This document shows positions 2,256-13,981 of a DNA stretch of 13,981 nucleotides, piece after piece. Made by a program: the position numbers and the translations under genes. The stretch spans positions 1 through 13,981 of the forward strand of contig JAKALC010000011.1 in NCBI GenBank assembly GCA_021813335.1. Reading direction: 5' to 3'. This DNA comes from a bacterium (GTDB lineage: Bacteria; Patescibacteriota; Minisyncoccia; Phycocordibacterales; SBAW01). The notes beneath the pieces are model-generated. The model was not told the origin of the DNA and did no database searches. It saw nothing but the letters and a program-made list of their open reading frames with translations. Numbering within the stretch: position 1 is the stretch's first letter; every line of letters starts with the position of its first letter.

Positions 2256-3177
2256 GAGGCCATCTAAAAACTCATTTCCGGCATCGTGAAAGCTTTTTTG
2301 CATAGCAACGAATGAGTGCGACGGACACAAGCCCTTCATACTGCGCCCGGGTGTGCTCCCAGAGGTAATCGAGCCGTCGTTGCTGATCAAGGCATGCAAT
2401 GGAGCGCTCCACCTTCCAGCGACAGGGTGCATACCTGCGCTCAGCCCGATCATCCCAGAGGCGGGGTGGCTTGTGGCGATTGGCGAAGCCGCGATGATCA
2501 ACTGCGGATTTGATGCCTCGCCTGCGCAACTCGCTTCTGAACTCCGCGCTGTCATAGCCCTTGTCCGCCCGAAGCCGCTTCGGTCTGCGGCGTCGGGTGC
2601 CAACAACAAGCGCATCGATGGTCGGCAGCGCCGAATCAATGTCCGCCACGTTCGCTTTCGTGGTGAGTACGGCAAGCGGCAGACCGTTGCCGTCTATTAA
2701 AATGCTCCGTTTTAAGCCGTTTTTCTTCTTGAATCCCGAGTATCCAACCTGATCGTGACCCCCTTTTTATTCTGTCGAACAGAAGCATCGAGATACGCAT
2801 TCTGCCAGTTGATCTTGCGGCGGCGGTTCAGTTCCATGAGCAGAATGCCGGCCATGGCCGCCCATCGGCCTTCTCGGTGCCACGAAGTGAAGCGATACCA
2901 GCACGTTTTGCCGGAGCCATAGCGCTCGGGTGGGATATCCTCCCAGCGGCAGCCGGTGGAGAGGACATAGAGGATGCCGTTCATCGTTTTGCGGTCATCG
3001 GAACGAGGCCTGCCGGTTCGCGCGGGCACCGGCATAAGCGGAGCGAGGAGGGACCATTCCTTGTCTGAAAGGTCTGACGGGAGCGGTTTGAGAGAAGACA
3101 TGAGCAAAAGTGAGGCGGATAATGCCCCTGCTCCTTGGAACTATTTTAGCATGAAAAGAGAGTTTTTAGATGGCCTC
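2256..3177 (-). mobile_element. IS5-family insertion sequence (IS427/IS1031-like), apparently intact, 922 bp
   Basis: Perfect 18-bp terminal inverted repeats: gaggccatctaaaaactc (2256-2273) and gagtttttagatggcctc (3160-3177). They enclose a two-frame DDE transposase. No unambiguous target-site duplication was seen. Confidence 0.85.
2272..3107 (-). CDS. IS5-family DDE transposase made by -1 programmed frameshift (orfA 2712-3107 joined to orfB 2272-2763)
   Basis: orfA reads LSDKEWSLLAPLMP...GRPRSDDRKTMNGILYVLSTGCRWEDIPPERYGSGKTCWYRF (DUF4096-type N-terminus). The -1 frame opens at 2763 and reads GGHDQVGYSGFKKKNGLKRSILIDGNGLPLAVLTTKANVAD...DKGYDS, typical of IS5 DDE cores. The slippery run AAAAAG-GGGG (minus strand) lies at 2759-2768. 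Confidence 0.85.
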
Positions 3178-11029: not shown

Positions 11030-11037
11030 CAAACAAC

Positions 11038-11058
11038 AAACGCCTTAGGGCGTTTTTT
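11038..11058 (+). terminator. Rho-independent terminator after tRNA-Leu(GAG)
   Basis: aaacgcc ttag ggcgttt is followed by a T-run. The outer flanks (acaaacaacaaa / ttttttgtttgt) extend the pairing. Confidence 0.7.
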
Positions 11059-11104
11059 GTTTGTGCGCAGAGGGCACCAGAGTTCCCAATAAACAGAGTC
11101 AGAA

Positions 11105-11320
11105 ATGAAAGCGATCGGCGCGTGGAGAGGTATGCTAGGGAAACAGTGGTATAGCTGGGATGAGTTTGTAGAAAAAGTTAAAGAGTGGAAAGTGTCATCA
11201 GCCATTCAATATCTCGCTCGCTATAAACTTGATCCAAGAATGCCAAGCGTTCCGCGCTTGATCTATCCGAACGAATGGAAAGACGTAGGCGGTAGCTTCA
11301 AGGCAGTATTGGACCTTTAA
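11105..11320 (+). CDS. Small protein resembling a single 'integrase repeat' unit
   Basis: WYSWDEFVEKVKEWKVSSAIQYLARYKLDPRMPSVPRLIYPNEWKDVGGSF fits my recollection of the roughly 50-aa unit W-x-[ST]-[FWY]-[DE]E...S-x-x-[EQ]Y...DPR[LM]PS-x-P-x-x-x-Y-x-x-EWKG-x-G-x-F. The gene is low G+C and has its own terminator. Confidence 0.45.
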   Translation: MKAIGAWRGMLGKQWYSWDEFVEKVKEWKVSSAIQYLARYKLDPRMPSVPRLIYPNEWKDVGGSFKAVLDL

Positions 11321-11350
11321 TCCGATACCGCACGTGCAAACGAAGATTCG

Positions 11351-11389
11351 ACGCCAGGTCGCCCGAACGGGACCTGGCGTATTTGTTTG
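11351..11389 (+). terminator. Rho-independent terminator of 11105-11320
   Basis: A 10-bp stem acgccaggtc / gacctggcgt with a 10-nt loop is followed by atttgtttg. Confidence 0.7.
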
Positions 11390-11582
11390 CAGATTTCTGA
11401 CATAGGACAATCGATGCATTTTCTCCGTACTCACAATGCATTTTGCATAGATAGAACCCAGTTCGGAAACAGGGGTAATCCTGCGCACCCGCGATTCGAT
11501 TGGCGCTCGGTTTCCGCCGTGCTAGCATCTTTTTCGGGAAGTTCGATAAAACGGTTCATTCAACAAACGGGAGATCGCAGCG

Positions 11583-11819
11583 ATGTGCTATGCGTCTTTG
11601 GCGGCGCGGGGCGTCAGTTGTATCCGGACCGTCAGGAAACCGGAGCAGCTGAAGCGCAGGAAGCCCCGGCTGGGCATCGAAAAGTTGAAGGTCCTGAAGG
11701 AAAACCGCCTTCGTGAGGCGCGCCGGGCGGCGGCGAAGCTCGCGCGGCGAAAGCGCAAAAAGGCGAAGAAAGAAAGGGAGGCGCGGAAGATTTTGCGCCA
11801 GCGCAAACTTCTCCACTGA
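11583..11819 (+). CDS. Highly basic Lys/Arg-rich 78-aa protein (possible nucleic-acid binder), function unknown
   Basis: A GGGAGA SD at 11569-11574 lies 8 nt before the ATG. The + strand is purine-rich. The ORF ends 10 nt before a strong hairpin. The sequence is RKPEQLKRRKPRLGIEKLKVLKENRLREARRAAAKLARRKRKKAKKEREARKILRQRKLLH. Its low complexity keeps confidence modest. Confidence 0.4.
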   Translation: MCYASLAARGVSCIRTVRKPEQLKRRKPRLGIEKLKVLKENRLREARRAAAKLARRKRKKAKKEREARKILRQRKLLH

Positions 11820-11828
11820 ACAAAGTCA

Positions 11829-11856
11829 AAGCCCGGACGCGGATGCGTCCGGGCTT
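11829..11856. terminator. Bidirectional terminator hairpin between convergent genes
   Basis: A 12-bp stem aagcccggacgc / gcgtccgggctt has the loop ggat. On the minus strand it is followed by tttgactttg, so it is the better terminator for the minus-strand operon. Confidence 0.7.
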
Positions 11857-11873
11857 GCTGATTGCGTTGCGGT

Positions 11874-12101
11874 TCAGAGGAGGCGGTAGAGCGCCTTCAC
11901 CGCCATTTCCGCGAAATGGCTCGCGGCCGGGATGGCGAAGGCGACGAGCAGAGCAATTCCGATCTCGCCCGTCCACTCTACTTCTGAAATTTCCCCCTTG
12001 TTTCTCGGCACTTCGAGGATCTTTTCCATCCACTCCTCGTCCACGATGGCCGGAGTGATCCCCTCGGTACCGACGATCTCGATCCTTATCTCATTCCCCA
12101 T
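11874..12101 (-). CDS. 75-aa protein with acidic N-terminal domain and C-terminal hydrophobic anchor, unknown function
   Basis: ORF 11874-12164 was trimmed to ATG 12101, which follows AGGGGAGAGGTGAGA (a strong SD). The sequence is MGNEIRIEIVGTEGITPAIVDEEWMEKILEVPRNKGEISEVEWTGEIGIALLVAFAIPAASHFAEMAVKALYRLL. Confidence 0.5.
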   Translation of the reverse strand: MGNEIRIEIVGTEGITPAIVDEEWMEKILEVPRNKGEISEVEWTGEIGIALLVAFAIPAASHFAEMAVKALYRLL

Positions 12102-12170
12102 TCTCACCTCTCCCCTGAAATGAACAGCTGCGGATTCGAACGTGGAATTCGTTTCTGGACTCACGGTATC

Positions 12171-12368
12171 TCATCGCCGCCATGCTCGCCACCCGAAGAA
12201 GCCGGCGAGCGCGAAGCTCGCGACGACGGCGAGGGTCTGGAACCATCCCCACTCCGTCTTGAGCGTATGCGTGACTCCGGCGATGATCAGATACAGGCCG
12301 ACGGCGGCGAAGATAGGCGCCTTGAGCGCGTCTTCGTGTTTCCGGTCATGCTCATCATCCTGCGGCAT
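12171..12368 (-). CDS. 65-aa two-TM membrane protein, unknown function
   Basis: ORF 12171-12488 was trimmed to ATG 12368, which follows AGGGAGGAAGAA. The sequence is MPQDDEHDRKHEDALKAPIFAAVGLYLIIAGVTHTLKTEWGWFQTLAVVASFALAGFFGWRAWRR. Confidence 0.5.
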   Translation of the reverse strand: MPQDDEHDRKHEDALKAPIFAAVGLYLIIAGVTHTLKTEWGWFQTLAVVASFALAGFFGWRAWRR

Positions 12369-12378
12369 TTCTTCCTCC

Positions 12379-12522
12379 CTAGCGGTAACCGAGGACGCTG
12401 TTCCAGTCCACGGTTGTTGCGATGAGCGCAAGTAGAAAAAGGGTCCCGGCGAGAACCCCTTTCCAATCATCGCGCCCGGATGCGCCAAGCCAACCCTGGC
12501 GCTCCTTTGTGTGATAGTCCAT
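12379..12522 (-). CDS. 47-aa single-TM membrane protein, unknown function
   Basis: ORF 12379-12579 was trimmed to ATG 12522, which follows CAGGAGAGATCCT. The sequence is MDYHTKERQGWLGASGRDDWKGVLAGTLFLLALIATTVDWNSVLGYR. Its stop lies 10 nt before the next start. Confidence 0.45.
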   Translation of the reverse strand: MDYHTKERQGWLGASGRDDWKGVLAGTLFLLALIATTVDWNSVLGYR

Positions 12523-12551
12523 AGGATCTCTCCTGAAGTTGATCTGATACA

Positions 12552-12579
12552 ACAATAGCATTTTCATATAAAAAGTCAA
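12552..12579 (-). promoter_or_regulatory. Sigma70-like promoter of the three-gene mini-protein operon
   Basis: On the minus strand, TTGACT (12579-12574), a 16-nt spacer and TATTGT (12557-12552) are present. This lies about 30 nt upstream of ATG 12522. Confidence 0.45.
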
Positions 12580-12644
12580 TACTACCAGAGTGAATTCTCA
12601 CCCTAAACGCAACAAACCCTGACGCATTGAAAAGGTGCGGCTTT

Positions 12645-12693
12645 TTGACTTCTTGACTGACACTAAGTGTCAGTCAAGAAGTGTCAGTCAAGA
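12645..12693. repeat. 35-bp perfect palindrome plus tandem 14-bp repeats (operator/iteron-like) in a divergent intergenic region
   Basis: acttcttgactgacact (12648-12664), a centre base a, and agtgtcagtcaagaagt (12666-12682) form the palindrome. The unit agtgtcagtcaaga occurs in tandem at 12666-12679 and 12680-12693. An extra TTGACT lies at 12645-12650. Confidence 0.8.
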
Positions 12694-12747
12694 CAGGCAA
12701 TTGTTCTGGACAACTCACCACGAATCAGGGCGATATATACTGTGCTG

Positions 12748-13292
12748 ATGCTCTACACGGGGAAGGGAGACGGGGGACGACGAAGGTGTTCGGGTGCGAC
12801 CAGCAGAGGATCTCGAAGTCGTCGGAACTGCCGGAAGCGCTCGGCGCTCTCGACGAGTTGAATGCGTTTCTGGGCTTTGCGCGGGTGTGCGCCGCGGGCT
12901 CGCCGCGCATCGCGGCGGCCCTGCGCGGCGCGCAGGAAGCGCTTTTTGTCGTGCAGGCGGAAACCGCCGGAGCAGACAAACGCCTCGCGCCGGACGCCGT
13001 GGAGAAGATGGAGGCCGTCATCAACGGCATAGAACGGGAGATCCCGCCCCTGAAGGGGTTTTCCATTTCCGGCGGAACGGAACTCTCCGCGCTCCTCGAC
13101 GTCGCGCGCACGCTCGCGCGCCGGGCCGAGCGGCGGCTCGTCGCTGCCGCGGATGCGGGCGCGCGCGCCGTTCCGCCGGAGACGAAGGCGTATATGAACC
13201 GCCTCTCCTCGCTTCTCTTCGCGCTTGCGCGGCTCGCCAACCACGAAGCGGGCGTCGCGGAAGAACAGCCGCGTTACGGTCAAGCGGCGTGA
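12748..13292 (+). CDS. PduO-type ATP:cob(I)alamin adenosyltransferase, interrupted by a 1-nt frameshift in a G5 run
   Basis: MLYTGKGDGG (12748-12777, frame of ORF 12667) must join TTKVFG..RISKSSELPEALGALDELNAFLGFAR (frame of ORF 12681-13292). GGGGG at 12772-12776 would need to be G6. The rest (MNRLSSLLFALAR) is family-typical. Confidence 0.75.
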
Positions 13293-13981
13293 TTCTCGTT
13301 CAGGGTGATTTCGTGGATCGACTGGTTGCGGTGCACGACCTCGTCGTTTCGCACGCTCCTGAAGAACTCGTATTGGCTTCTCGGGTGTCGGCCGTACCAC
13401 GTGAGGAAGTCGCTCTCGATTGCCTTTGATTTGAGGGACGCCTCGTTCTGCTTGAGGAAAAGAGTGTATTGGTCAAACGCGTGTTGCTCGAAGAGGTAGT
13501 TGGTCTCAAGCGACCAGCGCGGGTTGATGAGGTATATGAAGTAGGACATCCAGAAATAAAAGAACGCAAAGAACAAGGGGATGATCGTATGGCGGATGAT
13601 GCCGGCCGGCTGTTCTTTGCGTGCGAGGGCGGAGATGACGACCACATGTATCGTTTCATTGTCGGAAGCGAAATGCGCGAAACGCGCGATGGTCGAGAGC
13701 TTGAGCGCGCGTGTTTCGTCGGTGTAGAAAAGCGTGAGGAGCGTGAAGGCTGCCGAGGCCCAAGAATGATAGGGGACGCGCGCAATCACTTCGACCGCAC
13801 GGAACTTGAGATACGAGGGCTTGCCATAGATGGCGTTGCCGCACCACACGAGTATCCCGCCGAGGAATCGCGGCAAGAGGCCGGGGCGGTACCGGTCAAG
13901 CGACGCTTTGTATTCTTGGAGCGCCGCCTCGTCATTTAAGGATTCTATAAGCTTTTCGAATTCTGCGTGTTCTGTCGACAT
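13280..13981 (-). CDS. Alternative oxidase (AOX/PTOX)-like membrane-associated di-iron carboxylate protein
   Basis: Four iron-ligand blocks occur in the AOX order: RAVEVIARVPY (E), SDNETIHVV (ExxH), NYLFEQHAFDQY (E) and RNDEVVHRN (ExxH). The ATG lies exactly at the window edge, so the true start could be further upstream. The gene overlaps the convergent adenosyltransferase by 13 nt. Confidence 0.65.
   Translation of the reverse strand: MSTEHAEFEKLIESLNDEAALQEYKASLDRYRPGLLPRFLGGILVWCGNAIYGKPSYLKFRAVEVIARVPYHSWASAAFTLLTLFYTDETRALKLSTIARFAHFASDNETIHVVVISALARKEQPAGIIRHTIIPLFFAFFYFWMSYFIYLINPRWSLETNYLFEQHAFDQYTLFLKQNEASLKSKAIESDFLTWYGRHPRSQYEFFRSVRNDEVVHRNQSIHEITLNENHAA

Follow-up and report, generated by a model that had tools for sequence, protein, structure and literature searches.

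Bacterial MITEs and other small nonautonomous insertions are exemplified by the Correia/NEMIS elements of Neisseria, ERIC, and the MITEs derived from IS5. The insertion described here, found in a CPR/Patescibacteria-type organism, is similar to these elements in being short (~137 bp), noncoding, hairpin-forming, intergenic, and located next to promoter elements, as well as in being polymorphic between close lineages and having end modules that are common to other loci. It differs from them in that it lacks both clear terminal inverted repeats and a secure target duplication, its whole unit is present in a single copy in the assembly, and no partner transposase has been identified.

The palindromic array in the middle of this insertion can be compared with several other systems. 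As in the case of the proteobacterial REP/BIME sequences and REPINs, short palindromic units are found in this host as singlets, inverted pairs, and tandem pairs, and they form several families. However, the unit of the array is found at just two loci, one of its copies resides in an IS remnant and not after a gene, and no RAYT (Y1) was found in the genome. The array also resembles the remnant of Tn10 "nearly precise excision," reportedly described by Foster and colleagues in 1981, and the circle or dimer junctions of IS3, IS30, and IS21, in that it is a short perfect palindrome whose identical arms meet as ...CA/TG... and is nested in mobile DNA. Unlike those structures, it has no known parent element, its spacer measures 1 nt in one copy and 5 nt in the other, and its flanks fit neither of the two orientation models. 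Finally, the combination of an inverted pair with an adjacent direct repeat of one arm is shared with FRT-type and operator-type arrays, whereas the absence of a recombinase or regulator gene nearby, the symmetric 1-nt spacer, and the lack of conservation set this array apart from them.

The array is located in a genome of 0.66 Mb (88 contigs, 62% G+C, 92% complete, 7% contamination), one contig of which (C69) constitutes the window, i.e., the whole 13,981-nucleotide stretch of DNA analyzed in this work. It probably represents ordinary repeat or mobile DNA inside a lineage-specific noncoding insertion, either a MITE/REP-like mosaic or a decayed remnant. As this case illustrates, a palindrome that strikingly resembles an operator can turn out to be repeat DNA of recent, strain-specific origin, and a few related loci, together with contigs from a sister lineage, are sufficient to tell the two apart. 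For the biology of the CPR, it provides one well-polarized small noncoding insertion that splits a conserved back-to-back promoter of the leaderless type and is associated with the decay of the downstream cobalamin adenosyltransferase gene.

The palindromic array and its flanking genes

The first-pass annotation of this region had recorded a perfect 17+1+17 palindrome, a tandem 14-bp unit with an extra TTGACT at position 12645, and a total of four half-sites capable of slipped pairing, all in a divergent control region between a minus-strand promoter (12579-12552) and the start codon of an adenosyltransferase gene (ATG at position 12748). This anatomy was borne out in every respect by reading of the sequence and by the repeat search (Table 1). 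The two 17-nt arms (12648-12664 and 12666-12682) are 100% complementary and are separated by a single nucleotide, and the TTGACT hexamer is found at positions 12645-12650 and 12653-12658. When the degenerate fourth unit is counted, the array becomes an imperfect 2+2 inverted arrangement, in which the unit at 12642-12650 looks truncated. The 11 bp to the left of the window arm are identical in 8 of 11 positions to those of the second copy of the arms on contig C57 (see below).

The window contains three copies of the 11-mer half-site, compared with 0.05 expected by chance, and none of the 200 shuffled sequences reached this number. Folded as single-stranded DNA, the array forms a hairpin of -16.9 kcal/mol (z = -4.6 relative to the shuffled sequence). 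Logan contigs (assemblies, not reads) from the separate samples X1 to X4 of one mine-drainage study were used as an independent source of sequence. Contigs from X1, X2, and X4 span all or part of 12620-12679 and 12650-13981 and show no more than one difference from the window. Thus, the array is independently covered in three samples and is not an artifact of the MAG assembly.

Table 1. Features of the array, of the insertion around it, and of their surroundings (window positions unless a contig is named)
Feature	Position	Strand	Remarks
Apparently complete/intact IS5-family IS	2256-3177	minus (frames)	DUF4096 and DDE_Tnp_1; 18-bp perfect terminal inverted repeats
mem1, first mini-membrane-protein gene	12379-12522	minus	Divergent from PduO; weak homologs at the same position in loci L098 and L099
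Mini-membrane-protein operon promoter	12552-12579	minus	TTGACT, 16-nt spacer, TATTGT; conserved in relatives
Lineage-specific noncoding insertion	12583-12728	none	146 bp here, 9 bp in sister lineage; 16 relatives also compact
28-bp module, left end of the insertion	12589-12616	none	Identical to C41:4657-4684
Degenerate, apparently truncated fourth unit	12642-12650	none	T-run and TTGACT; read from sequence
Perfect 17+1+17 palindrome	12648-12682	none	Two 14-bp units in inverted orientation, each side extended by 3 bp
14-bp unit AGTGTCAGTCAAGA, head-to-tail pair	12666-12679 and 12680-12693	plus	Read from sequence
TATACT, conserved, putative PduO -10	12736-12741	plus	6 nt before the ATG, leaderless-like; conservation observed, promoter function predicted
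PduO-type cob(I)alamin adenosyltransferase gene	12748-13292	plus	PF01923, E 7.5e-39; frameshifted in the G5 run at 12772-12776
Decayed IS481/IS3-like element	C57:12340-12920 (L001:1250-1830)		~30-bp inverted repeats starting with TGT

To the left of the array, a three-gene operon of mini-membrane proteins is encoded on the minus strand. Its promoter was the sole sigma-70-like match that a promoter scan detected in the region. No homologs of the mini-membrane protein mem3 were found in 150 genomes of the order. To the right, the N terminus of PduO is split by the frameshift in the G5 run. Contigs from samples X1 and X2 agree with the window in this run, while the sister lineage in X3 has a G6 (an extra G behind position 12771) and an intact frame; the frameshift is real in the population.

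A lineage-specific insertion in a conserved back-to-back promoter

Scanning metagenome contigs with the PduO protein yielded 71 loci with 55 to 79% identity. Many of these have the gene order rplS, (LAGLIDADG), tRNA-Leu, a variable interval, PduO, and a convergent gene for an alternative-oxidase-like protein. The same back-to-back promoter as in the window was recognized in 16 of the 71 loci. Its elements are, in order, a small gene on the minus strand, the ribosome-binding site of that gene, a -10 element, a 17-nt spacer, AGTCAA (which is the -35 TTGACT of the minus-strand gene read on the opposite strand), 12 to 20 nt, a -10 hexamer, 6 to 10 nt, and the ATG of PduO. The -10 hexamer of PduO is TATACT in most of these relatives and a one-base variant of it in three. 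Given the distance of just 6 to 10 nt from the -10 element to the ATG, this layout implies that the PduO mRNA may be leaderless or nearly leaderless across this CPR family. Loci with the compact promoter include L076, L079, L092, L093, L098, and L114, to be compared with the span 12552-12750 of the window.

The distance from AGTCAA to TATACT is 156 nt in the window versus 12 to 20 nt in the 16 relatives and in the allele of the sister lineage. This sister lineage, which is ~90% identical to the window, was found in X3 and X4, i.e., among the same mine-drainage samples. Its contigs join position 12582 to position 12729 via the nine letters CGCCCGGGC, which produces the compact spacing, and the extra G that keeps PduO in frame is found on the same sister contig. 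Because the outgroup loci are compact as well, the difference is due to an insertion in the lineage of the window and not to a deletion in the sister lineage. The insertion thus displays a presence/absence polymorphism at an otherwise conserved site. In X3 and X4, there is also a third allele, which has the right end of the insertion in common with the window but a different interior (contig matches with loose ends at position 12718).

The element itself likely spans positions ~12589 to 12725, or ~137 bp (range, 128 to 146 bp), with boundaries uncertain by up to 6 bp. If the ancestral spacer measured 16 nt, the trinucleotide CAG at 12586-12588 and 12726-12728 could be a 3-bp target duplication, although a 3-bp match is weak. 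The two ends of the insertion show by eye a 7- to 8-nt imperfect match at best, and no inverted pair between them came up in the repeat search. The 28-bp module at the left end is repeated on contig C41, and in both places it begins 10 nt from AGTCAA, upstream of a gene for a small membrane protein on the minus strand. That this match starts within a few base pairs of the left edge of the insertion suggests a true element terminus. On C41 (C41:4166-4724, or L146:1167-1725), the product of the gene downstream of the 28-mer is 132 aa long, has a transmembrane helix at its N terminus, and gives subthreshold matches to winged-helix domains (PadR, E 0.16; MCM_C wHTH, E 0.04); the end of the contig is reached 40 bp past the repeat. 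Five relatives searched for the 28-mer yielded no copy.

No second copy of the whole 137-bp unit was found in this genome, which is 92% complete and fragmented, so that further copies may be unassembled; the 28-mer on C41 and the arms on C57 are the only parts that recur. Contig depth is elevated at positions 12527-12659, an increase that may reflect the promoter conserved in related species and not copies of the repeat. Inside the insertion, to the left of the palindrome, a small, weak terminator-like hairpin (12623-12639) is followed by a T-run on the plus strand (12623-12645 altogether), with no gene reading into it.

The palindrome motif was absent from all 44 relatives that had at least 150 bp of upstream sequence. 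Comparison of the relatives, one of the checks that the first-pass annotation had proposed, showed that the palindrome is neither conserved nor located at an island boundary; instead, it belongs to a separate small insertion. The order of the mem1-like gene, promoter, PduO, and alternative oxidase gene is conserved across the site without a break in synteny, and relatives likewise have LAGLIDADG and tRNA-Leu after rplS. The junction that separates PduO from the mini-membrane gene is ancestral and conserved, so the palindrome does not mark the boundary of the 10.2- to 12.7-kb segment. A direct repeat derived from tRNA-Leu was not detected, the longest common word being 10 nt versus 9.4 nt expected by chance. 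Accordingly, the idea of an att site at an island edge is not supported.

The interval between tRNA-Leu(GAG) and PduO (11031-12747 in the window) varies among relatives from 8 bp to 2.6 kb and contains differing small genes, such as a basic78 homolog in L080 and mem1-like genes in L098 and L099. A LAGLIDADG gene after rplS is also present in G004, L094, and L106, with ~50% identity. Genomes of the same genus are too rearranged for a direct synteny comparison. The sets of relatives used for the synteny and 28-mer searches, as well as for the 60-genome and five-genome searches described below, include the unpublished genome G002.

The second copy of the arms and the palindromes of the host genome

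A search of the genome and its relatives for the half-sites, likewise suggested by the first-pass annotation, revealed one further locus in the genome and none in the relatives. Exact arms are found only in the window and at C57:12580-12606. The C57 copy is a 27-bp perfect palindrome with 12-bp arms and corresponds to the core of the window palindrome minus the central 4 bp; the center measures 1 nt in one copy versus 5 nt in the other, the difference being the 4-bp CTAA. This copy is part of a decayed IS481/IS3-like element, in which an 88-aa HTH_Tnp_1 frame is followed by the palindrome and then by an 80-aa C terminus of the integrase core (the last 75 codons of that core). Compared to a 289-aa homolog (L057:1495-2364), the palindrome sits at the joint of ~145 missing codons (residues ~79 to 223, or ~435 bp).

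Both copies have GCTTT just outside the left arm. Beyond the arms, the similarity between the flanks of the two copies is at chance level, as 143 and 132 of 300 shuffled sequences scored as well. Homology of the window flanks to the ends of the C57 IS, suggestive by eye, was rejected on the same grounds, and the protein similarity ends after 7 residues.

Wider searches for the arms returned no matches in 60 relatives, in plasmids, or in 400 genomes of the phylum, the latter with arm spacings of up to 400 bp permitted. The 24-nt pattern had 0 matches in JGI metagenome contigs, and in five genomes of the same genus or family, arms with 2 mismatches did not exceed the control frequency. A looser 20-nt pattern matched 31 sequences in GTDB genomes of many phyla and one viral contig, whose sequence is identical to that of one GTDB match. 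These were rejected as instances of a conserved motif, being unrelated hairpins with different flanks and loops, found about as often as expected for a random stem. Rfam searches gave nothing at the gathering thresholds and chance-level matches at permissive ones. Literature searches with the motif returned primers only, and no work on MITEs in the CPR was found among the papers searched.

Some segments of C57, ribosomal-protein genes among them, are present a second time on C21 and C29, at 67 to 72% nucleotide identity. Thus, the bin mixes two related organisms, in line with its estimated contamination of 7%. The composition of C57 is close to that of C69, so that both contigs probably belong to one genome.

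Perfect palindromes like the one in the window are not rare in this genome. A genome-wide search detected 151 perfect inverted repeats (arms of at least 11 nt, loops of at most 7 nt). Several multicopy families consist of perfect palindromes of 21 to 48 bp with loops of 0 to 1 nt, arranged as singlets, tandem pairs, and inverted pairs; examples are C30:17569-17611, C79:765-806, C51:157-203, C51:16353-16400, and C18:5770-5880. A 0.66-Mb genome is thereby seen to carry many families of short perfect palindromes. Members of one family (on C51 and C41) are found inside long open reading frames. At C18, arm copies that become progressively shorter ("stuttered") lie on the flanks of the palindrome.

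Origin and possible role of the array

The array is most simply viewed as a part of a MITE/REP-like mosaic or decayed remnant. An insertion of ~137 bp entered the short spacer between the -35 element of the mini-membrane operon on the minus strand and the -10 element of PduO. The insertion is a mosaic of dispersed-repeat modules, with the palindrome array as its central module. That the array is perfectly symmetric and contains a tandem copy of the 14-bp unit would be most simply explained by hairpin-prone replication, combining template switching with slippage. The present effect of the array is probably structural: the -10 element of PduO is displaced by ~137 bp from the DNA that once lay upstream of it, with the hexamers of the minus-strand promoter left intact. 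The element may be, or may have been, mobile. In agreement with such an origin, there are no additional promoter-like sites in the insertion and no match to it in Rfam, and the genome harbors both the multicopy palindrome families and an IS5-family IS. Weighing against it are the lack of convincing terminal inverted repeats, a target duplication limited to the doubtful CAG, the lack of a transposase tied to the element, the recurrence of just two modules instead of the whole unit, and the restriction of the arms to two loci of the genome, with no matches in the other collections searched. The insertion and the PduO frameshift co-occur in one lineage, and they could have arisen in either order. 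The arms stand at two unrelated sites that have no common flanks, target duplications, or known parent element.

The terminal dinucleotides ...ACA/TGT... are typical of IS3, IS481, IS21, and Tn7-like elements, and the arms of the palindrome meet in just this way. This raises the possibility, rated here as rather unlikely, that the array is the scar of a lost transposon, with the arms representing the last 12 to 14 bp of its two ends and TGT...ACA at the center. The interior would have been lost as in nearly precise excision, or else the palindrome would be a junction of abutted ends (a circle or dimer). In either case, the second right-hand unit would correspond to a subterminal binding site of the transposase. 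Such a scar would fit the nesting of the C57 copy in another IS, and the 4-bp CTAA that distinguishes the two centers looks like an IS5-type YTAR target. However, TGT at the center places the interior of the element outside the palindrome, yet the outer sequences at the two loci are unrelated; in the back-to-back orientation, the outer ends are not known to match any IS terminus, and there is no flanking target duplication. Furthermore, searches of the genome, the 60 relatives, the 400 genomes of the phylum, and the GTDB and JGI collections turned up no element bounded by such ends. A nonmobile origin, in which a fold-back template switch made the palindrome and the C57 copy is templated filler from a C69-type array at an IS deletion, appears very unlikely. 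It would account for the position of the C57 palindrome exactly at the joint of the ~435-bp deletion, for GCTTT as a possible microhomology outside the left arms, and for the stutter of truncated arm copies on C18, which is expected from template switching. However, it leaves the whole 137-bp insertion and the left end shared with C41 unaccounted for, and the 4-bp difference between the centers means that the C57 sequence is not a simple copy.

The interpretation offered by the first-pass annotation stands in part: a general suspicion of mobile DNA has held up along with the anatomy, but none of the three proposed roles has. An operator for a dimeric or tetrameric protein, gained with the insertion and regulating the mini-membrane operon and/or PduO, is an unlikely assignment. 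Four half-sites in a 2+2 inverted arrangement between divergent genes would suit it, as would the 28-mer at the same distance from the -35 element upstream of the C41 transmembrane protein and the position of the C57 palindrome directly after the intact 88-aa HTH_Tnp_1 frame; this C41 protein, membrane anchored and winged-helix-like, and the C57 88-aa HTH remnant are the candidate binders. However, the array is missing from the orthologous promoter in the 16 relatives and in the sister lineage, and its other copy lies in a dead IS and not at a promoter. Neither core promoter is overlapped: the array (12645-12693) is 66 to 114 bp away from the minus-strand -35 (12574-12579) and 43 to 91 bp away from the PduO -10, and PduO downstream is a pseudogene. 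The 14-bp spacing would put neighboring sites on different faces of the helix, and the winged-helix matches of the C41 protein are below the Pfam thresholds.

An extension of the same idea is a portable cis-regulatory cassette, in which the 28-mer and the 2+2 array would be carried to promoters 10 nt from their TTGACT -35 elements, with the C41 winged-helix protein as a candidate recognizer. Alternatively, a palindrome with 12- to 14-bp arms might be a minimal module that is copied and pasted via template switching. This pair of proposals is quite unlikely. If true, such a cassette would rewire small-membrane-protein operons, making it a rare case in which mobile binding sites rewire the promoters of ultra-small bacteria.

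It is highly improbable that the array is an intrinsic terminator, a set of origin iterons, an att/dif site, or an assembly artifact, even though it forms a strong hairpin, lies to the right of the weak terminator-like hairpin mentioned above, and is located in a tRNA-Leu-PduO interval of variable length. The terminator scan did not list it, the hairpin is not followed by a T-run on either strand, and both neighboring genes read away from it. The iterons or origin remnant envisaged initially would have to make do with just two direct copies at a nonhelical 14-bp period, and the window contains no rep-like open reading frame. The absence of a tRNA-derived repeat and the continuous synteny speak against a recombination site, and the contigs from three samples speak against an artifact.

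With respect to possible sources of transposition functions, profile searches of the genome detected no Y1 transposase (PF01797) and no intact rve gene. The window itself contains the IS5-family IS listed in Table 1. A terminal inverted repeat found in the repeat search bounds the segment 9389-9564, and the ends of this segment resemble those of the IS at 2256-3177.
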